A stretch of DNA of 13,110 bases from a virus: the UHGV virus genome UHGV-0162637. One strand, written 5' to 3'. A program made the position numbers and the translations under genes. Positions within the stretch are counted from its first letter, which is position 1; each line of letters begins with the position of its first letter. A model generated the notes under the pieces. The model had not been told where the DNA came from, did not search any database, and saw only the letters and a program-made list of their open reading frames with translations. This document shows, piece by piece, positions 5,833 through 13,110 of this stretch.

Positions 5833-5857
5833 AAATAAAAAAGGGGCGAAAGCCCCT
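5833..5857 (-). terminator. intrinsic terminator immediately after the repressor gene
   Basis: Minus strand: TAA stop, then GGGGC-TTTC-GCCCC hairpin followed by TTTTTTATTT. Classic rho-independent terminator. Confidence 0.75.
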
Positions 5858-6507
5858 TAAGGAAGGTTTGCTAGCTTGGCATCAACGACAACGCCAATGA
5901 TTTTACAGTTCCCATTGATTTCAATCATTGGGTATTGTGGATTGAGTGGTTTCAGGAATTTTCTACCGGCATCAATAACTAACTTTTTGAATGTCGCCTC
6001 GTTTTCTCCTTCAAGTTTGGCGACTACCAGCTTTCCATTACGTGGTTCGACTTCTGGGTCGACGAGAATAATCATCCCCTCAGGAATACTCAGTCCTGCC
6101 GGGGCAGTCATTGAATCGCCTTTAACGTCGAGCCAAAAAGAGTCTTCAGAACAATCTACCGTTGTGTCGTACCAGTTATCTATTGCACGCCTATGATATG
6201 GCTCTACAGCTTCCATCCAACATCCTGCGCTTACCCAACTAATTAGAGGATACGAACCTCTTGGATCATGCCTGCTGTGATAGGCAATGTTTGAAAGACT
6301 ATCCTCTCCTTTCAACAGGTAATCAGGGGAGCACTGCAAAGCCTTGGCTAAGGCCAATAGGTTTTCGCCATTGGGCTCAGTTTCAGATCGCTCCCATTGG
6401 GAAATAGCAACATTAGACACGCCAACCATCTTTCCAAGGGCAGCCTGCCTAATCTTGAGTTCTTTTCTGCGAGCGCGAATACGCTCACCCATCAGTTGTG
6501 TATTCAT
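5857..6507 (-). CDS. c2: C2/CI-type prophage repressor (HTH plus S24 LexA-like autopeptidase domain), P22 C2 family
   Basis: 216-aa product MNTQLMGERIRARRKELKIRQAALGKMVGVSNVAISQWERSE...GVVVDAKLANLP matches my recollection of P22 C2 nearly throughout. Divergent from cro across an operator region. Confidence 0.9.
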   Translation of the reverse strand: MNTQLMGERIRARRKELKIRQAALGKMVGVSNVAISQWERSETEPNGENLLALAKALQCSPDYLLKGEDSLSNIAYHSRHDPRGSYPLISWVSAGCWMEAVEPYHRRAIDNWYDTTVDCSEDSFWLDVKGDSMTAPAGLSIPEGMIILVDPEVEPRNGKLVVAKLEGENEATFKKLVIDAGRKFLKPLNPQYPMIEINGNCKIIGVVVDAKLANLP

Positions 6508-6587
6508 AGTTAAGACATCTTAAATAAACTTGACTTAAGATTCCTTTGGTGGATAATTTAAGTGTTCTTTAATTTCGGAGCGAGTCT
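6508..6587. promoter_or_regulatory. OR operator region with PR (and divergent PRM)
   Basis: Three 18-bp P22-type operators: AGTTAAGACATCTTAAAT (6508-6525), a TTAAG-containing site around 6528-6549, and ATTTAAGTGTTCTTTAAT (6556-6573, as I recall for P22 OR1). PR: -35 TTGACT (6530-6535), -10 GATAAT (6552-6557), GGAG SD before cro. Confidence 0.8.
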
Positions 6588-6773
6588 ATGTACAAAAAAG
6601 ATGTTATTGACCACTTCGGAACCCAGCGTGCTGTTGCTAAAGCACTAGGCATTAGCGATGCAGCAGTCTCTCAGTGGAAAGAAGTTATCCCAGAGAAAGA
6701 CGCCTATCGATTGGAAATCGTTACAGCTGGCGCCCTGAAGTATCAAGAAAGTGCTTACCGCCAAGCGGCATAA
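6588..6773 (+). CDS. cro: Cro repressor (P22 Cro family), 61 aa
   Basis: MYKKDVIDHFGTQRAVAKALGISDAAVSQWKEVIPEKDAYRLEIVTAGALKYQESAYRQAA matches P22 Cro as recalled; transcribed rightward from PR. Confidence 0.9.
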   Translation: MYKKDVIDHFGTQRAVAKALGISDAAVSQWKEVIPEKDAYRLEIVTAGALKYQESAYRQAA

Positions 6774-6888: not shown

Positions 6889-7185
6889 ATGGCACAAGCA
6901 AGCTACAGCAAGCCAACACAGCGAGAAATTGATCGCGCTGAAACTGATTTACTCATCAACCTGTCAACGCTTACCCAGCGCGGTCTGGCAAAGATGATTG
7001 GCTGTCATGAATCGAAGATAAGCAGAACGGACTGGAGATTTATTGCTTCGGTCTTGTGTGCTTTCGGAATGGCATCAGACATCAGTCCGATTAGCAGGGC
7101 TTTTAAGTATGCGCTTGATGAAATCACAAAGAAAAAATCCCCGGCCGCCACCGAGGATTTTAAGCAAATTGATATGCAATTCTGA
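6889..7185 (+). CDS. cII: CII-like transcriptional activator (lambda CII / P22 C1 family), 98 aa
   Basis: AGGAAA SD; C-terminus ...TKKKSPAATEDFKQIDMQF parallels lambda CII ...TNKKRPAATERSEQIQMEF (recalled); central HTH-like segment; canonical position after cro and nutR. Confidence 0.85.
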   Translation: MAQASYSKPTQREIDRAETDLLINLSTLTQRGLAKMIGCHESKISRTDWRFIASVLCAFGMASDISPISRAFKYALDEITKKKSPAATEDFKQIDMQF

Positions 7186-7217: not shown

Positions 7218-7379
7218 ATGACAAAACGTCGTAAGAAATACCAGGAAAAAGAAGAGATTCGACACCCTGATTCACCTGAGGGATTAGTGGTAGCCGCAGC
7301 AAATAACAGGGCGTTCGCAGAGCGCCTTGTTGGTGTTTACAGACTAGCCAAAGCAGGAGTGAAACATGGGCGTCGTTAA
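7218..7379 (+). CDS. hypothetical small basic protein (53 aa) between cII and the O-like gene
   Basis: ATG at 7218 preceded by ACAGGAG at 6 nt; product MTKRRKKYQEKEEIRHPDSPEGLV... . Its 3' end overlaps the O-like start by 14 nt. Below the ORF-track size cut-off. Confidence 0.4.
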   Translation: MTKRRKKYQEKEEIRHPDSPEGLVVAAANNRAFAERLVGVYRLAKAGVKHGRR

Positions 7380-8256
7380 GTTAGCTGATTACAGGCATAA
7401 CCCTGTACAACATCAGGAGGCATCCAGTATGGGGTATGTCTCTATACACCGCCAGTTTATGGACAGCAGGCTCTATAAGGACTCTCAGGCAGTACATCTT
7501 TGGCTTCACTTAATCCTCAAGGCTAATCACGAATCTACTGTCGTCAATACGGATATCGGTCCGATAACTGTTGATCGCGGTCAGATGATAACTGGACGCC
7601 CGTCGCTGGTCAGAGAAACATTCATTCCAGACAACAAAGTTCGGAGCTTATTACGGACTTTTGAGTCGAAAGGGATGCTTAATATTTGCTCGATGGGGAA
7701 GAAATTTAGCCTGTTTACAATTGTTAAATATGACGATTTTCAGGCAAAAAATTGTCCAACGGTTGTCCAACGATTGTCCAACGCAACCCCCAGTAATGGC
7801 GCGGCTCTCAGCGGAGATTGTCCAACGGTTGTCCAACGATTGTCCATAAACAATAATATAAATAATATCTCTAATACTGACGTATTAGAGAGTACCGCAG
7901 CAGACAAAAAGTCTGACAAGAAAAAACCTTCCGTTAGCTGTCAGGATGTTGTCGATGCTTACCACGAAATCCTTCCTGAAGCGCCAAGAATCCGCGCACT
8001 GAATGACAAGCGTAAAAACCAGATCCGAACGTTCTGGCGCAAAGCCGGAGTAATAACACGTCAACTTGACGGGCATGGGTTCACGATGCAGGACTGGAGA
8101 AATTATTTGAGCTACGTTGGCGAAAATTGCCGATGGATGTTCGAAGAGCGCCCAAACCATCAACGCGGAACCGTCTGGCACAAAAAGGGATTTGATTTCC
8201 TGCTTAACGATAATACCTACCTGAAAGTTCGTGAGGGTGAACACGATGACCGATAA
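7366..8256 (+). CDS. O: replication initiator protein (lambda O-like), origin iterons embedded in the gene
   Basis: Position after cII; the iteron cluster in mid-gene is translated as the repeat CPTVVQRLSN. AGGAG SD before ATG 7366; an alternative in-frame ATG at 7429 has an AGGAGG SD, so the true start may be 7429. Confidence 0.8.
   Translation: MGVVKLADYRHNPVQHQEASSMGYVSIHRQFMDSRLYKDSQAVHLWLHLILKANHESTVVNTDIGPITVDRGQMITGRPSLVRETFIPDNKVRSLLRTFESKGMLNICSMGKKFSLFTIVKYDDFQAKNCPTVVQRLSNATPSNGAALSGDCPTVVQRLSINNNINNISNTDVLESTAADKKSDKKKPSVSCQDVVDAYHEILPEAPRIRALNDKRKNQIRTFWRKAGVITRQLDGHGFTMQDWRNYLSYVGENCRWMFEERPNHQRGTVWHKKGFDFLLNDNTYLKVREGEHDDR
7753..7880. repeat. lambdoid replication origin: six iterons plus AT-rich region
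   Basis: TTGTCCAACG at 7753, 7764 and 7775, then again at 7818 and 7829, with a variant TTGTCCATAA at 7840 (11-bp periodicity, two clusters 33 bp apart), followed by an AT-rich stretch 7850-7880. Same architecture as lambda ori inside O. Confidence 0.8.
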
Positions 8257-8788
8257 TTTTTATGCGCCGCCCCATAGCATCGAGGCAGAGCAGGCGGTGA
8301 TTGGTGGATTGCTTCTGGATGATGACAGCAGTGAGCGCGTCCAGAAAGTTCTGGCGATGCTGAAGCCTGATTCATTTTACAGCCGACCACACAAAATCCT
8401 TTTCGAAGAAATAACCAGAATGCACCGGGAGCAAAAGCCAGTAGATGGCCTGACGCTTTTCGATGAACTGGAGCGTAAATCGTTAACGGTGTCTGTTGGC
8501 GGTTTTGCTTATATCGCTGAGATCGCAAAGAACACGCCAAGCGCAGCAAACATCGTTGCCTATGCAATGCAGGTTCGTGAAACCGCAATGGAACGCTACG
8601 CCATCAACCGCATGACTGAAGCGACGGAATTGCTCTATCTCACAGTAAAAGCCGCCGGTGTGTGGGCGGGTGGCATTGAAACACCTTCGGTGGAAACTCC
8701 ATCGGAAGGTTCAAAATTTTTTGGTTTTGATATGGATAACGAATTCATCAGTGGTTTTGATGTAGGAGCATGGGGAAAATTACTCTGA
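8246..8788 (+). CDS. DnaB-family replicative helicase, N-terminal domain only (truncated, likely non-functional fragment)
   Basis: ATG 8246 with GAGGG SD, overlapping the O stop. Residues PPHSIEAEQAVIGGLLLD...SVGGFAYIAEIAKNTPSAANIVAYA align with the E. coli DnaB N-terminal domain (recalled). Similarity ends after about 140 aa and the ORF stops at 181 aa; the RecA-like ATPase domain is absent. Confidence 0.7.
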   Translation: MTDNFYAPPHSIEAEQAVIGGLLLDDDSSERVQKVLAMLKPDSFYSRPHKILFEEITRMHREQKPVDGLTLFDELERKSLTVSVGGFAYIAEIAKNTPSAANIVAYAMQVRETAMERYAINRMTEATELLYLTVKAAGVWAGGIETPSVETPSEGSKFFGFDMDNEFISGFDVGAWGKLL

Positions 8789-9690
8789 TGGCTAAAAATG
8801 AATTTAAACCATTTGCAACTGGCTCTGGTGCTAACGTAACAACTCAGACAGACTGGGAATCATTACCTGTCCTATCTGCTGGCTTTACATCGGGGAAGGC
8901 ATCAAGTGCTCAGGTGAACAAAGGTCTGAGGCAAGGAACGGCAATGGCGGCTGCTGTGGGGCAGTTTATCGCAGATAATACCAGTGAGGATGTGAAAGAT
9001 AATGGTGATATTGCGGGGCTCTCTGCGCAATTAGCGAGTGCGGTAGAGCAGGCTGCAACAGGACGGCTTATTGGTGTTCGCACAATAACGACATCCGGGA
9101 CTTATACGCCAACCCCAGGAACGAAAAGCATTATTGTTGAAGTCCAAGGCGCAGGCGGAGGAGGGGGCGGGGTTGGTACAACTAACTCTACCAGTGTTGC
9201 AGTTGGGTGTGGAGGGGGAGGTGGCGCCTACGCTAAATCCCGTATCACCAATTTAGACTCAGCATATACTGTAACCATTGGAGCTGGTGGAGCTGGTGGG
9301 GTTAACGGTAATGGAGGAAACGGTGGTGGATCTTCTTTCGGATCTATAACCGCTGGCGGTGGATTTGGTGGTGGTTCAGGAAATGGGGTACCTCCTATTA
9401 TTCAGAACTCACCAGGAATTCCTATAGCATCCGGAGGTAATATTTTAAATCTCTCTGGAGAGAATCCAACTATTGGCATGGCTATATCGACTAGCTCTAT
9501 CATCTCTGGTGGCGGAGGTAATAGTCCATTAGGTGTGGGTGGTAATCCACACGGCTCAGCGGGTATCGGTGTATTGCCGACTGGTTTCGGGGCTGGGGGC
9601 GGTGGGGCTAACGCATATGTGAATAATGCCACCCAATATAACGGAGCCGCCGGTGGTAATGGTATTGTTCTTATCTGGGAGTATGCATGA
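8788..9690 (+). CDS. glycine-rich protein (about 300 aa), possibly phage tail-fibre-like; function unknown
   Basis: Long intact ORF; ATG 8788 overlaps the stop of the helicase fragment (TGATG), with an alternative in-frame ATG at 8770. Non-glycine-rich N-terminal region of about 130 aa, then poly-Gly and GxGG tracts to the C-terminus ...GIVLIWEYA. Family assignment is tentative. Confidence 0.65.
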   Translation: MAKNEFKPFATGSGANVTTQTDWESLPVLSAGFTSGKASSAQVNKGLRQGTAMAAAVGQFIADNTSEDVKDNGDIAGLSAQLASAVEQAATGRLIGVRTITTSGTYTPTPGTKSIIVEVQGAGGGGGGVGTTNSTSVAVGCGGGGGAYAKSRITNLDSAYTVTIGAGGAGGVNGNGGNGGGSSFGSITAGGGFGGGSGNGVPPIIQNSPGIPIASGGNILNLSGENPTIGMAISTSSIISGGGGNSPLGVGGNPHGSAGIGVLPTGFGAGGGGANAYVNNATQYNGAAGGNGIVLIWEYA

Positions 9691-9866
9691 TGAAATATGC
9701 ATTGGTAGAAAATGATGTTGTGATTAACGTTATATTATGGAACGGCGATGGAAAACAATACGATGATTATCTCTGTATAAAGCTTGACGACAATAGCGTT
9801 GTTGGTGTTGGGTATACATATTCAGAGGGTAGGTTTTTGCCCCCTGAATATATTGATGAATTATAG
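9687..9866 (+). CDS. hypothetical small protein (59 aa) coupled to the glycine-rich gene
   Basis: ATG overlaps the stop of the glycine-rich ORF (ATGATGA); product MMKYALVENDVVINVILWNGDGKQYDDYLCIKLDDNSVVGVGYTYSEGRFLPPEYIDEL. Its 3' end overlaps the convergent acyltransferase stop by 6 nt. Below the ORF-track size cut-off. Confidence 0.35.
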   Translation: MMKYALVENDVVINVILWNGDGKQYDDYLCIKLDDNSVVGVGYTYSEGRFLPPEYIDEL

Positions 9867-10955
9867 TGGTGAAATATTTTTACTCATTATTAGTCTCCCT
9901 GTTCTTATAAATTTCTTTTCTACATATCTATATGATAAATCAGAAAAGACAACTAGCAAAAGAATGAAAGCGAAGAAGTATATAACTTTGTTTTCGTAAA
10001 TGACGGTGTTAAGGGAGAGTTTGTTCAAAACCTCCCTTGTTACATGTAGTAATGGTAAATGGCAAAGATAAATGCTATAAGATCTATCCCCAATCCAGTC
10101 CAGCATTTTATATGCTGGATTATCTTTTTTATCTACCACACCACCACTAATAAAACATAGAAATAATAATGCACCAGCAAAACCAATCGCAGGTAATGTC
10201 AATCTATAGTTAAAGTGCTGAGGGGCAACGAGTAAAACAAAAATGCAAACTATAATAAAAAATAGTCTTGTGCATTTATTGCTTACATAACACTTGCTTC
10301 CAGTTATGAATATAATTGCTCCCAGAAAGAATGCTTGTGGTCTAATCCACCAACCAATGGATTGATAGTACATTTGAGTTACTGGCAGGAAAGATGCAAT
10401 AGCTACTATGAATATGAAAATAATCGTCAGATTTTTCCTGTTAAAGAGCAGCATGATTGCCGCAATTATAGCATACAGTTGCCATTCCAAAGATAGAGAC
10501 CAGGTCACCGCATTCATTTGGTCACAATCATTTGCTGTTACTGCGCACCTATAGAAGTGGATATTAGAATAACCAAGTAGGGATGTATATAACGTAGTGA
10601 ATGATTTAAGAGGTGAAACACCCCAAGAAGGTTGCATAAAATAAGAGATTATTATACAGATGGTGCCCCATACAAGTAAGCATGGGGCTAGCCTAAATAT
10701 TCTTTTAGATAAAAATAATAAAAATATTTTAGTTGTTCTGCCGGTTTTTTTTATTTCCCCAGTTAAGCTTTTAGCCATCAAATATCCAGATATAGCCAAA
10801 AATATATCAACTCCAGCCCAATAATTAACGTAATTAAAACTGCTCAAATACCAATCTGGCGAAGGTAATCTATTTCTATAATGTTGTAGAATAACCATTA
10901 TTATGGCTACCGCCCTTAGCGCTTGAATGTCAAGGTTTTTATTATTTAGGGTCAT
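9861..10955 (-). CDS. acyltransferase family 3 integral membrane protein (O-antigen acetylase-like, Oac/OafA type)
   Basis: 364-aa polytopic membrane protein with the conserved N-terminal motif LDIQALRAVAIIMVILQHY and many hydrophobic segments. Visibly AT-rich compared with flanking DNA. Lies at the prophage/host boundary where P22- and Sf6-like phages carry O-antigen modification genes (recalled). Confidence 0.85.
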   Translation of the reverse strand: MTLNNKNLDIQALRAVAIIMVILQHYRNRLPSPDWYLSSFNYVNYWAGVDIFLAISGYLMAKSLTGEIKKTGRTTKIFLLFLSKRIFRLAPCLLVWGTICIIISYFMQPSWGVSPLKSFTTLYTSLLGYSNIHFYRCAVTANDCDQMNAVTWSLSLEWQLYAIIAAIMLLFNRKNLTIIFIFIVAIASFLPVTQMYYQSIGWWIRPQAFFLGAIIFITGSKCYVSNKCTRLFFIIVCIFVLLVAPQHFNYRLTLPAIGFAGALLFLCFISGGVVDKKDNPAYKMLDWIGDRSYSIYLCHLPLLHVTREVLNKLSLNTVIYENKVIYFFAFILLLVVFSDLSYRYVEKKFIRTGRLIMSKNISPL

Positions 10956-11887
10956 GCTATACTCATCTTATTTAAGAATAAATATTAGATGGTAATCATA
11001 ACCTACCATCAGCTTGCTTTCATTGCCTGGAGCATGATTGTGGCAAAAAATTAGCGCAAAAAAAACTCAAAACTGGCGAAGGTGTCGATTCGTCTTGCGC
11101 TAATGTTCTGTGCCATTTTTGTGTCACACGCAGTTTGACACCTTAGATCATTTTCAATCATGTACCATCAACTTCATTAGTGTGAATGCGGAGATGGCCT
11201 TTATAAACAGTTAGTTATGCGTGATTCTGCTAATTCGTAATGCGAAGGTCATGTGACGTTACCGTCAATCCAGTCCGCCCACCACTGCATCATTTTTCTG
11301 CGCTTAACGTAGCGGATGTCTCACTATCACACGGTGATGGTCCATTACTGCTTTGTAGAATGGATAGAGAACTGAGGATAAAAAGATATCCCAAAACCCA
11401 AAATCTCATCTTTAGGATTTGCAGAAAGGTAGGCGTGAACAGATACCTACACATGAAGACGGAGCTAGTCCAGATGTGATATTTGTGGTGATCACATACA
11501 TCATCAACGATGCTCGTTATGGTGAGTTTGATGACTACCCGCTGAAGTGAAAATTGTGTTGTGTACCAAATTGCGTACCAAACTAAAATCACAAATCATG
11601 AAACCCTTGTTCATGGCGGTTCTCAGGGGTGTTTCGCGTAATCGTGAAACAAAAAGGTAGATTGTTGCTTACCGTCATTCATCATTAGGTTAAATCCGTT
11701 ATTTCTGCTGTCTGCCAGAGTATCAAATATCACCGTGCTAATCAGCTTTAGCGCCACAATTTGGCAGCGAGTGGCAACAGATCATGTCAGATAAAAATGA
11801 GAGGGTAGTCACATTTTCTTGCACTTTATTCCAGCCAGTTCATAAGTATTTCCGTAAAAAGAACAGCTATTTGAAACTCCTGAGGGT

Positions 11888-13060
11888 TTGCTGTTGAAAC
11901 GCCGTCTTATTATTGCTGCTTCTTTGTTCGTTTTTAACTTATCGTCTGGTTTTGCGGCGGAAAACATTCCTTTTTCACCTCAGCCTCCAGAGATTCATGC
12001 CGGGTCCTGGGTATTGATGGATTACACCACCGGTCAGATCCTCACCGCGGTTAATGAGCATCAACAGCGCAATCCCGCCAGCCTGACAAAGCTGATGACG
12101 GGTTATGTCGTGGATCGCGCTATCGATAGTCATCGCATTACGCCAGACGATATTGTCACCGTGGGGCGCGATGCGTGGGCGAAAGATAATCCGGTGTTTG
12201 TCGGTTCTTCACTGATGTTTTTGAAAGAGGGCGATCGCGTATCGGTACGTGATTTAAGCCGTGGTTTAATTGTGGATTCTGGAAATGACGCTTGTGTTGC
12301 TCTGGCTGACTATATTGCCGGTGGGCAACGGCAGTTTGTTGAAATGATGAACAACTATGCCGAGAAGCTGCATCTCAAGGATACGCATTTTGAAACAGTG
12401 CATGGTCTGGATGCACCTGGCCAGCATAGCTCGGCTTATGATTTAGCTGTGCTTTCTCGCGCTATCATCCACGGCGAGCCCGAGTTTTATCATATGTACA
12501 GTGAGAAAAGTCTCACCTGGAACGGTATCACCCAGCAAAACCGTAACGGGTTGTTGTGGGATAAAACCATGAATGTTGACGGCCTGAAAACGGGTCATAC
12601 TTCTGGTGCCGGGTTTAATCTCATTGCTTCGGCTGTAGATGGGCAGCGTCGTCTCATTGCAGTGGTAATGGGGGCTGACAGTGCAAAAGGTCGTGAGGAA
12701 GAGGCAAGAAAATTACTGCGTTGGGGGCAACAAAACTTTACTACGGTGCAAATTTTGCACCGTGGGAAAAAGGTCGGAACGGAACGCATCTGGTATGGCG
12801 ATAAAGAAAATATCGACCTGGGAACGGAACAAGAGTTCTGGATGGTGCTACCGAAAGCCGAAATTCCACATATCAAAGCCAAATATACCCTTGATGGTAA
12901 AGAGCTCACCGCGCCAATTAGCGCCCATCAGCGGGTAGGGGAAATTGAACTTTACGACCGTGATAAACAGGTGGCGCACTGGCCGCTGGTTACCCTGGAA
13001 TCTGTCGGGGAAGGCGGCATGTTTTCCCGCCTGAGTGATTATTTCCACCATAAGGCCTGA
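11888..13060 (+). CDS. dacD: D-alanyl-D-alanine carboxypeptidase DacD (penicillin-binding protein 6b)
   Basis: 390-aa product with signal peptide and the SxxK (ASLTK), SGN and KTG motifs of class-C low-molecular-weight PBPs; matches E. coli DacD as recalled. The start is a TTG at 11888, so the exact start is uncertain. Confidence 0.9.
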   Translation: MLLKRRLIIAASLFVFNLSSGFAAENIPFSPQPPEIHAGSWVLMDYTTGQILTAVNEHQQRNPASLTKLMTGYVVDRAIDSHRITPDDIVTVGRDAWAKDNPVFVGSSLMFLKEGDRVSVRDLSRGLIVDSGNDACVALADYIAGGQRQFVEMMNNYAEKLHLKDTHFETVHGLDAPGQHSSAYDLAVLSRAIIHGEPEFYHMYSEKSLTWNGITQQNRNGLLWDKTMNVDGLKTGHTSGAGFNLIASAVDGQRRLIAVVMGADSAKGREEEARKLLRWGQQNFTTVQILHRGKKVGTERIWYGDKENIDLGTEQEFWMVLPKAEIPHIKAKYTLDGKELTAPISAHQRVGEIELYDRDKQVAHWPLVTLESVGEGGMFSRLSDYFHHKA

Positions 13061-13110
13061 CCTTTCTTTTGCAGCAGACTGGCAGGAGTGCGAGTCTGCT
13101 CGCATAATCA

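Follow-up and report, generated by a model that had tools for sequence, protein, structure and literature searches.

A predicted Pam3-type tail fibre and its putative 59-residue Tfa-like partner in a deleted Escherichia coli prophage

Introduction

The fibre of cyanophage Pam3, gp24, is a trimer in which an N-terminal helical bundle docks on the baseplate and is followed by a TNF-like domain and a glycine-rich lattice; conserved GGGGxGG motifs form its stem, and host binding is mediated by variable distal loops (PMC9608196). Trimerisation is driven mainly by the N-terminal bundle, with loose contacts between the heads, and the corresponding chaperone gp25 trimerises via its C-terminal helices (PMC9608196). 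The same study reported a local structural match of gp24 to the adhesin gp38 of phage S16. Here we describe a related gene pair, a glycine-rich open reading frame (ORF) and a 59-residue ORF directly following it, which is located in the virus genome UHGV-0162637. The whole 13,110-nt stretch that was analysed is referred to as the window.

Fibres of the Pam3 type are also found in phages of Enterobacteriaceae. The reports on Klebsiella phages SCNJ1-Y (fibre TFP_Y) and MMNM_27 describe single Pam3-like fibres on minimal baseplates, and 'pam3 fiber-like' is already in use as a class of receptor-binding proteins (RBPs) in a recent preprint (bioRxiv 10.64898/2026.05.12.724579). According to these reports, host range is set by variable loops of the glycine-rich head: TFP_Y, the gp24 homologue of SCNJ1-Y, was shown to bind lipopolysaccharide (LPS) and host-range mutations map within its glycine-rich domain (PMC12671077), and host-adaptation mutations of MMNM_27 occurred in long loops (PMC11633184). 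The likeness of the Klebsiella homologues to the fibre described here is drawn from these descriptions and not from a direct alignment, and no short chaperone partner is described in these papers as far as term searches show.

The locus differs from that of Pam3 (PDB 7YFW, 7YPX; PMC9608196) in several respects. The partner protein comprises 59 residues as compared to 162 for gp25, the C-terminal helical trimerisation domain of gp25 is wholly absent, and the likeness is at the level of the fold only. In addition, the N-terminal docking domain of the fibre is of an enterobacterial/Burkholderia lineage, and the phage is a temperate phage of E. coli with an O-antigen acyltransferase moron coupled to the fibre. 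The Tfa proteins (Caudo_TAP, PF02413), such as lambda Tfa, Mu gpU (5YVQ) and P2 gpG, possess a homologous N-terminal fibre-binding domain and are encoded directly behind the cognate fibre, with which they co-vary, as is the case here; the C-terminal region defining this family is absent from the 59-residue protein. The T-even/S16 gp38 adhesin (PDB 6F45) resembles Pam3-type fibres in its glycine-rich stem motifs and hypervariable receptor-binding tip loops. Kinship is restricted to the fold for mycobacteriophage Bxb1 gp33 ('tail wing brush') with gp29 (PDB 9D93), which has a different placement on the virion at a siphovirus tail tip, and for the glycine-rich domain of ALK/LTK (7LIR, 7NX3), a metazoan receptor ectodomain.

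Results

The glycine-rich gene encodes a predicted Pam3 gp24-type fibre

The gene pair and the gene adjoining it are organized as follows:

8788..9069, + strand: fibre residues 1-94, conserved and mostly helical N-terminal domain, predicted to dock on the baseplate (PHROG 11303, tblastn, model)
9070..9690, + strand: fibre residues 95-300, predicted TNF-like beta-sandwich and glycine-rich lattice (PF21722 head)
9687..9866, + strand: 59-residue protein ('mini-Tfa'), a putative stand-alone N-terminal fibre-binding domain with no Caudo_TAP C-terminal domain
9861..10955, - strand: Acyl_transf_3 gene, probable O-antigen acetylase-type moron, convergent, closing the module (PF01757, PHROG 3333, PHROG 6705)

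The glycine-rich ORF extends from 8788 to 9690 on the plus strand and encodes 300 residues from the ATG at 8788. The first-pass annotation had assigned 306 residues to the protein, which corresponds to an in-frame ATG upstream at 8770. The start at 8788 is preferred because it overlaps with the upstream stop codon (TGATG), because the 99.8%-identical gene of E. coli PI24 has been annotated from the same codon and because residues M1, N4, F6 and F9 are nearly invariant among 87 homologues. As that annotation had stated, the C-terminal two-thirds are dominated by glycine, which accounts for 30.5% of residues 101-300 as opposed to 11% of residues 1-100, and a coupled 59-residue ORF follows on the same strand. 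A tandem-repeat scan of the glycine-rich DNA identified only a 9-mer in 2.3 copies and no slippage-prone array.

The only Pfam match of the protein at E<=0.1 was PF21722 (Gly_rich_2), which scored 32.3 bits against a gathering cut-off of 24.3; the match spans residues 101-296 of the protein and 1-223 of the 226 profile positions. Eight of the nine PHROG matches at E<=0.01 are tail-fibre families, among them PHROG 863 (tail fibre; 3.3e-58, full length) and PHROG 11303 (tail fibre protein; 8.8e-40, residues 1-100), and the ninth has no known function. No NCBIfam model matched either protein of the pair. Searched as a single sequence, the fibre did not match any PDB sequence; a profile of the 87 homologues matched the Pam3 fibre (7yfw and 7ypx, E 6.8e-9 and 7.4e-9, profile positions 79-303). 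The Pam3 fibre was also the top Foldseek match (6.5e-10) of an AlphaFold2 monomer model (pLDDT 93.4, pTM 0.81), which displays the same fold of helical N-domain, with helices at residues 40-65 and 75-90, TNF-like sandwich and glycine-rich lattice. Within the alignment, column entropy was lowest in the N-terminal domain, glycine motifs such as GAGGGGGG at position 121 and GAGGGG at position 268 were conserved, and variability was highest at about residues 200-260 (about 9385-9567). By this alignment, the distribution of conserved and variable regions is the same as that of Pam3 gp24.

Homologues of the fibre numbered 556 at E<=1e-3, most of them about 300 residues in length and originating from E. 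coli, Shigella, Klebsiella, Pantoea, Rahnella, Pseudomonas, Dyella and Rhodanobacter. An identical protein (P0001), whose 90%-identity cluster comprises 77 member sequences, is encoded on a 207-kb E. coli contig. Upstream of it are genes of the Pfam families E217_gp31_N, Phage_Tube_PhiTE, Dit_like, Pam3_gp18, Sheath_initiator, Baseplate_J and Phage_Wedge1, and downstream are the same 59-residue ORF, the acyltransferase gene, an integrase gene (intS) and chromosomal genes of the tRNA-Arg side. In PI24, the genes are arranged in the same way all along from terminase to integrase. In both PI24 and GCA_031684805, which look complete, Pam3_gp18, Sheath_initiator, Baseplate_J and Phage_Wedge1 genes precede the fibre gene, which was consistently found behind baseplate wedge genes in other genomes. 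Among cultured phages, tblastn matched only the N-terminal 75-98 residues, adjoining DUF2612 genes in Klebsiella, Salmonella, Burkholderia and other phages, and identified no full-length close relative; the missing match of the glycine-rich part is probably due to low-complexity filtering or divergence.

Taken together, sequence profiles and the predicted fold strongly indicate that the 300-residue protein is a complete tail fibre of the Pam3 gp24 type and thus of a kind already described. Several Shigella and E. coli homologues (P0098, P0101, P0103 and relatives; 332-338 residues, 43% identity, with PF21722) carry the NCBI name 'carbohydrate kinase', which is almost certainly a propagated mis-annotation.

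The 59-residue protein resembles the N-terminal domain of Tfa-type chaperones

The small ORF (9687-9866, + strand) begins within the stop of the fibre gene (ATGA), which suggests translational coupling of the two, and at the other end its stop overlaps with the last bases of the acyltransferase gene, which runs towards it (9861-10955, - strand). The protein has no Pfam match at E<=0.1 and hits only PHROGs of unknown function. Its model matches the fold of the N-domain of the Pam3 chaperone gp25, and the ORF would therefore correspond to the fibre-binding module alone. By sequence, gp25 (7ypx chain a) was missed in the PDB at E<=10, both by the single sequence and by a 75-sequence profile, and only chance-level matches occurred.

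A first word-indexed homologue search with the 59-residue protein returned two proteins, and the family was recovered by aligning the downstream ORFs of related loci. To this end, 80 viral contigs encoding fibre relatives were taken and their ORFs were searched for homologues. In many of these contigs a homologue is located directly downstream of the fibre, either as an ORF of 56-78 residues or as the first ~55 residues of a protein of 128-147 residues. The remainder of the long relatives is PF02413 Caudo_TAP, the lambda Tfa family, as determined for three tested proteins and the annotated Tfa of phage Goslar (1e-20 to 1e-34 for the four). An exhaustive profile search identified representatives of 6,838 clusters (50% identity) at E<=1e-3 and 1,042 at E<=1e-10. 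Among the best 150 representatives, about 110 have at most 80 residues and about 22 at least 120, a split which is indicative only, given that short forms were used to build the profile and that truncated ORFs may occur among the metagenomic sequences. Along with the 556 fibre homologues, these numbers show that both ORFs are real genes and no chance ORFs. The family reaches from phages and prophages of enterobacterial hosts to an E. coli jumbo phage and a Microbacterium phage; a Klebsiella short form (P0128) had no match among cultured phages.

Sequence and model suggest that the 59-residue protein is a Tfa-type chaperone reduced to its N-terminal fibre-binding domain, a form that has so far not been named. 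In four members of 110-175 residues (P0268, P0272, P0286 and P0287) the profile matched in two stretches; from their sequences, these look like tandem duplications of the N-domain and not like an N-domain followed by Caudo_TAP.

The N-domain is exclusively paired with glycine-rich heads

To determine which fibre heads are accompanied by the N-domain, 73 loci with a common fibre N-terminal domain were surveyed:

Glycine-rich (PF21722) head, 41 loci: short N-domain ORF in 24 (one cut by a contig end), long N-domain plus C-domain form in 14, neither in 3
Other fibre head, 32 loci: short form in 0, long form in 0, neither in 32 (27 of these with a Tfa of a different N-domain)

An N-domain ORF follows the head in 38 of 41 loci of the first group and in none of the 32 of the second (Fisher p ~1e-16, computed with 29 of the 32 other fibres and hence not overstated in this respect). 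The pairing of the N-domain with the PF21722 head is therefore exclusive among the 73 loci. Distances between N-domains tracked those between heads (rho 0.26, Mantel p 0.004, partial 0.44), and no tracking was observed with the N-terminal docking domain of the fibre (rho -0.06). Phage Goslar, Klebsiella phage Kp4865-2 and Microbacterium phage Damascus possess the same pair of head and N-domain on fibre shafts that are unrelated. The Damascus locus shows that the pairing extends to actinobacteriophages. There, a mini-Tfa-like N-domain (L084 3001-3303) begins at the stop of gp21, a protein of 476 residues with a PF21722-like head which is annotated as hypothetical, and 87 nt before the annotated start of gp22, suggesting that the latter has been mis-called.

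In loci lacking the acyltransferase gene (L010, L022 and others), the pair is often followed by an ORF of 650-1000 residues on the same strand. Five such ORFs were tested: Pfam identified tailspike-type domains (Tail_spike_N; pectate-lyase/beta-helix) in those of L010 and L022 and nothing in the other three. In some phages, Pam3-like fibres and tailspikes thus seem to occur in combination.

The fibre gene lies 150 bp downstream of a deletion junction

The ORF upstream of the fibre gene (8231-8788) is a chimera in which a part of dnaB is joined to a part of a baseplate-wedge gene. A three-way alignment of the window, the dnaB gene of ET245 and the wedge gene of PI24 placed the junction at a 3-bp microhomology, TAT, at 8636-8638, which is common to both genes. 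The fusion is in frame and leads from dnaB codon ~131 to codon 177 of a 226-codon DUF2612/Phage_Wedge1 gene. In megablast searches, all matches to intact phage dnaB stop at 8638 and those to the tail module start at 8636, and from this position onward the window is 99.8% identical to PI24. The dnaB fragment contains the DnaB N-terminal domain (PF00772, 1.8e-31, Pfam) and covers only positions 1-118 of TIGR03600 (phage_DnaB); residues 131-179 of the chimera matched PHROG 587 (structural protein), and the intact wedge gene matches PF11041 (Phage_Wedge1). The stop codon of the chimera is that of the wedge gene itself, and the stop-start coupling to the fibre is thus the native wedge-fibre coupling. 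Megablast detected the junction in none of the complete E. coli genomes, and no record of the chimeric product was present in the assembly index searched. The alignments indicate that the deletion from dnaB to the wedge gene was illegitimate and that the late genes in between were lost. In complete-looking relatives, the late genes of this interval include head and tail genes; as these have been deleted, the fibre cannot go onto a tail of its own.

These results bear on how the first-pass annotation had placed the pair. The upstream 'helicase fragment' is dnaB up to 8638, but its last 50 codons are wedge gene, and the truncation junction is not located directly at the fibre gene although the coupling noted there is real. 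The suggestion of a tail-fibre remnant with a chaperone holds for the fibre and for a chaperone-type partner; however, the fibre gene is complete and it is the prophage that is a remnant, and the partner comprises only the N-module of Tfa. The proposed location in front of a terminal O-antigen modification gene was correct. Given its full-length homology to the fibre of a complete-looking phage, the protein has to be regarded as an ordinary structural remnant by the criterion which that annotation had itself set.

The remaining features of the window are:

5857-6507, - strand: cI-type repressor gene, lambdoid early region
6530..6557, + strand: pR-like promoter candidate TTGACT-16-GATAAT upstream of cro (consensus scan, 10 of 12 matches; a consensus match alone, which says nothing of function)
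6588-6773: cro, lambdoid early region
6889-7185: cII-like gene, lambdoid early region
7366-8256: O-like replication gene, lambdoid early region
8246..8638, + strand: dnaB-type helicase gene, 5' fragment of ~131 codons (PF00772, TIGR03600, megablast)
8638..8788, + strand: wedge gene (DUF2612/Phage_Wedge1), last 50 codons with the native stop kept (99.8% identity to PI24)
11888-13060: dacD, chromosomal

A scan for strong plus-strand terminator-like sites found none between the pR-like promoter and position 9866. Like the chimeric ORF, the genes for fibre and mini-Tfa are located downstream of this promoter and the early rightward genes, and all three would probably be transcribed with the latter, only upon derepression. 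Within the O-like gene, an 11-nt direct repeat (TTGTCCAACGN) occurs in two clusters of three (7751-7783 and 7817-7849), which by their sequence look like origin iterons. As the origin and the O gene are intact but the helicase gene is truncated, the remnant should be replication-defective. No tRNA gene was found by a scan of the 13,110-nt window.

The fibre gene appears to be a passenger in the remnant

The acyltransferase closing the module matched PF01757 (4.7e-28), PHROG 3333 (O-acetyltransferase, 2.3e-50) and PHROG 6705 (O-antigen acetylase), and the same family is encoded convergently behind the fibre pair at further loci (L006/L007, L027, L034 and L055). Between this gene and dacD, ~60 nt remain from the 3' end of an intS-type integrase gene (11249-11309). 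The stretch around 11109-11309 is 99.6% identical to TUM9812 and 87% to PI24, and the region 11109-13110 of the window is common to ET776 at 95%. Prophages of this type are situated between sbcB and dacD with their own integrase on the opposite side. The cassette of fibre, mini-Tfa and moron therefore looks as if it had been imported from an argW-integrating Pam3-like myovirus.

In three other strains, TUM9812 (L088 4236-4624), E89 (L089 3436-3824) and MS15047 (H4), the fibre gene is reduced to a 3' stub and the identical 59-residue ORF and the acyltransferase gene are kept; the stub at the argW/intS locus comprises 213 nt and is annotated as a hypothetical protein. In E89 the acyltransferase gene is itself interrupted by IS1A. 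The stub strains suggest that it is the acyltransferase or attachment-site end that persists, and that the fibre gene of the window is a passenger spared by the position of the deletion endpoint. The deletion left the mini-Tfa and acyltransferase genes intact as well. ET776 also has a deletion from dnaB into the baseplate genes at the sbcB-dacD locus, but one that differs from that of the window. In ET776, the fibre is 87% identical, the mini-Tfa is divergent (62 residues), and a convergent BNR_2 sialidase-like gene (PF13088, 4e-70; L002 13295-14341) takes the place of the acyltransferase gene.

Discussion

We consider it likely that the pair represents a single short Pam3-like fibre and its cognate 59-residue helper, carried as a passenger in a deleted prophage. 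The 300-residue protein would be the single, probably trimeric receptor-binding fibre of a 'minimal' contractile-tailed phage, in which the N-terminal helical domain (residues ~1-94) docks on the Baseplate_J/Wedge1 rim. From the predicted TNF-like sandwich of residues 95-300, glycine-rich strands would extend and pack as a lattice, with the conserved GGGGxGG-type motifs as the stem and the variable loops at ~200-260 as the distal receptor-binding face. By analogy to its Klebsiella homologues, the fibre probably recognises LPS as its receptor, in keeping with the O-antigen acyltransferase gene that adjoins the pair. The 59-residue protein would be a copy of the beta-sandwich N-domain by which Tfa-type chaperones grip the side of the head, and may shield the glycine-rich region, which is prone to aggregation, while each subunit folds. 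The trimerising Caudo_TAP domain may be dispensable for such a head because gp24 trimerises mainly through its N-terminal bundle and its heads are only loosely in contact; the bundle of the present fibre would likewise trimerise on its own, and its heads would not be intertwined.

The wider proposal, which we hold to be about evenly balanced, is that the proteins of 55-80 residues following PF21722 heads form a large unnamed 'mini-Tfa' family of monomeric, laterally binding chaperones or accessories from which Caudo_TAP was repeatedly shed. Short and long forms are interspersed on the N-domain tree, and sister pairs of short and long forms are 48-55% identical.

Several points weigh against our reading of the pair. 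All structural statements are based on predicted monomer models, the loci of the census are phylogenetically non-independent, and the tree behind the repeated loss of the C-domain comprises ~55 columns and has no support values. With regard to the unrelated shafts, Kp4865-2 is an unverified record and the N-domain ORF of Damascus has 100 residues, with a tail outside any assigned domain. None of the characterised, plaque-forming phages among those examined was shown to rely on the short form alone, and, judging from sequence, the short form could also stay on the virion or have another role. In the remnant, nothing in the sequence indicates that the pair is expressed or used, and the 5' part of the fibre gene is lost in the three strains mentioned above. 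Finally, LPS or O-antigen is a probable receptor by analogy only, and reports on Pam3-like Klebsiella fibres differ between LPS and an outer-membrane protein; the recent preprint assigns Pam3-like adhesins to outer-membrane proteins (bioRxiv 10.64898/2026.05.12.724579).

Tfa proteins of Mu and P2 reportedly remain on the fibres. The 59-residue protein may accordingly be thought of as a stable virion accessory which sits on the side of the fibre head and modulates or masks receptor binding. Its fold and predicted binding partner are those of the gp25 N-domain, and it follows the head domain both in strict linkage and in divergence. Also, the Pam3 structure suggests that without a capping C-domain the distal loops would be uncovered, so that the protein could stay bound and leave the receptor site free. 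However, mass spectrometry of Pam3 virions did not reveal the chaperone (PMC9608196), and we regard a stable accessory as rather unlikely, though it is the best of the alternatives to a folding helper.

It appears still less probable that the 59-residue ORF is the decayed, non-functional stump of a Tfa gene and that the fibre alone was a working part of the parental phage. This would agree with the existence of long relatives with the same N-domain followed by Caudo_TAP, with the interspersed tree, which implies more than one loss of the C-domain, and with the published model, in which the conserved C-domain confers oligomerisation and assembly (PMC9608196). On the other hand, the short forms are under purifying selection, with dN/dS ratios (0.06-0.28) similar to those of long forms (0.11-0.14). 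Short forms also make up the majority of the best matches in the 6,838-cluster family, and the stop-start overlap with the fibre gene is conserved. A translated search found no remnant of a C-domain downstream of the short ORFs, where the next gene starts within tens of bases, and no Caudo_TAP ORF occurs in any short-form locus. This includes the window and a 42-kb stretch of PI24 that spans the prophage from terminase to integrase, head and tail genes among them, along with ~19 kb of flanking chromosome. We thus favor a functional short form over a stump.

A similarly small chance is given to the possibility that fibre and mini-Tfa were kept in the remnant by selection, either as a recombination reservoir for incoming phages or as a functional unit with the acyltransferase. 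Both genes are 100% intact, with the identical fibre protein P0001 and its 77-member cluster elsewhere. Moreover, the fusion preserved the native coupling and placed the genes downstream of the early rightward genes, and a transfer of the module between prophages of the argW and sbcB/dacD types seems to have taken place. However, an in-frame fusion arises by chance in one out of three cases, and the independent remnants TUM9812, E89 and MS15047 lost most of the fibre and retained the acyltransferase end, so that the moron or attachment-site end seems to be what is kept, with the fibre carried along.

A secreted or surface glycine-rich effector of bacteriocin or adhesin type with an immunity or partner protein and no role in the virion, which the first-pass annotation had rated as an equal fit, is hardly tenable: beyond the superficial architecture of a glycine-rich protein and a small coupled ORF surviving in a remnant, the fibre has no signal or transmembrane segment (maximum 19-residue mean 0.79, as judged by Kyte-Doolittle hydropathy and not by a dedicated signal-peptide predictor), its full-length homology and fold are those of a solved tail fibre, its family matches are glycine-rich domain and tail fibres, its gene is always situated behind baseplate wedge genes in phage tail modules and is merely truncated in other strains, and the partner has the fold of a Tfa N-domain. 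This candidate was rejected on hydropathy and homology, and no toxin or immunity family was matched (Pfam E<=0.1, PHROGs E<=0.01).

The analysis settles the annotation of two 'hypothetical' genes as a predicted complete Pam3-type receptor-binding fibre and its putative helper, and what was called a helicase fragment is recognized as a dnaB'-'wedge fusion, by which the deletion junction is located exactly. The fibre is already known in kind, and the modest novelty lies in a widespread unnamed class of apparent Tfa proteins cut down to the fibre-binding domain. The recurrent convergent O-antigen acyltransferase suggests that the phage modifies the receptor of its own fibre. Pam3-like fibres are the simplest known myovirus RBPs and candidates for host-range engineering, and the presence of a partner of about 60 residues instead of a full Tfa in many cases tells what to co-express when such heads are produced or swapped. 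The short forms provide a natural test of the model that holds the C-terminal domain of Tfa chaperones to be essential. If our interpretation is true, this conserved domain would be dispensable for fibre heads that are not intertwined, and head and mini-Tfa would form a self-contained, portable receptor-binding cassette.

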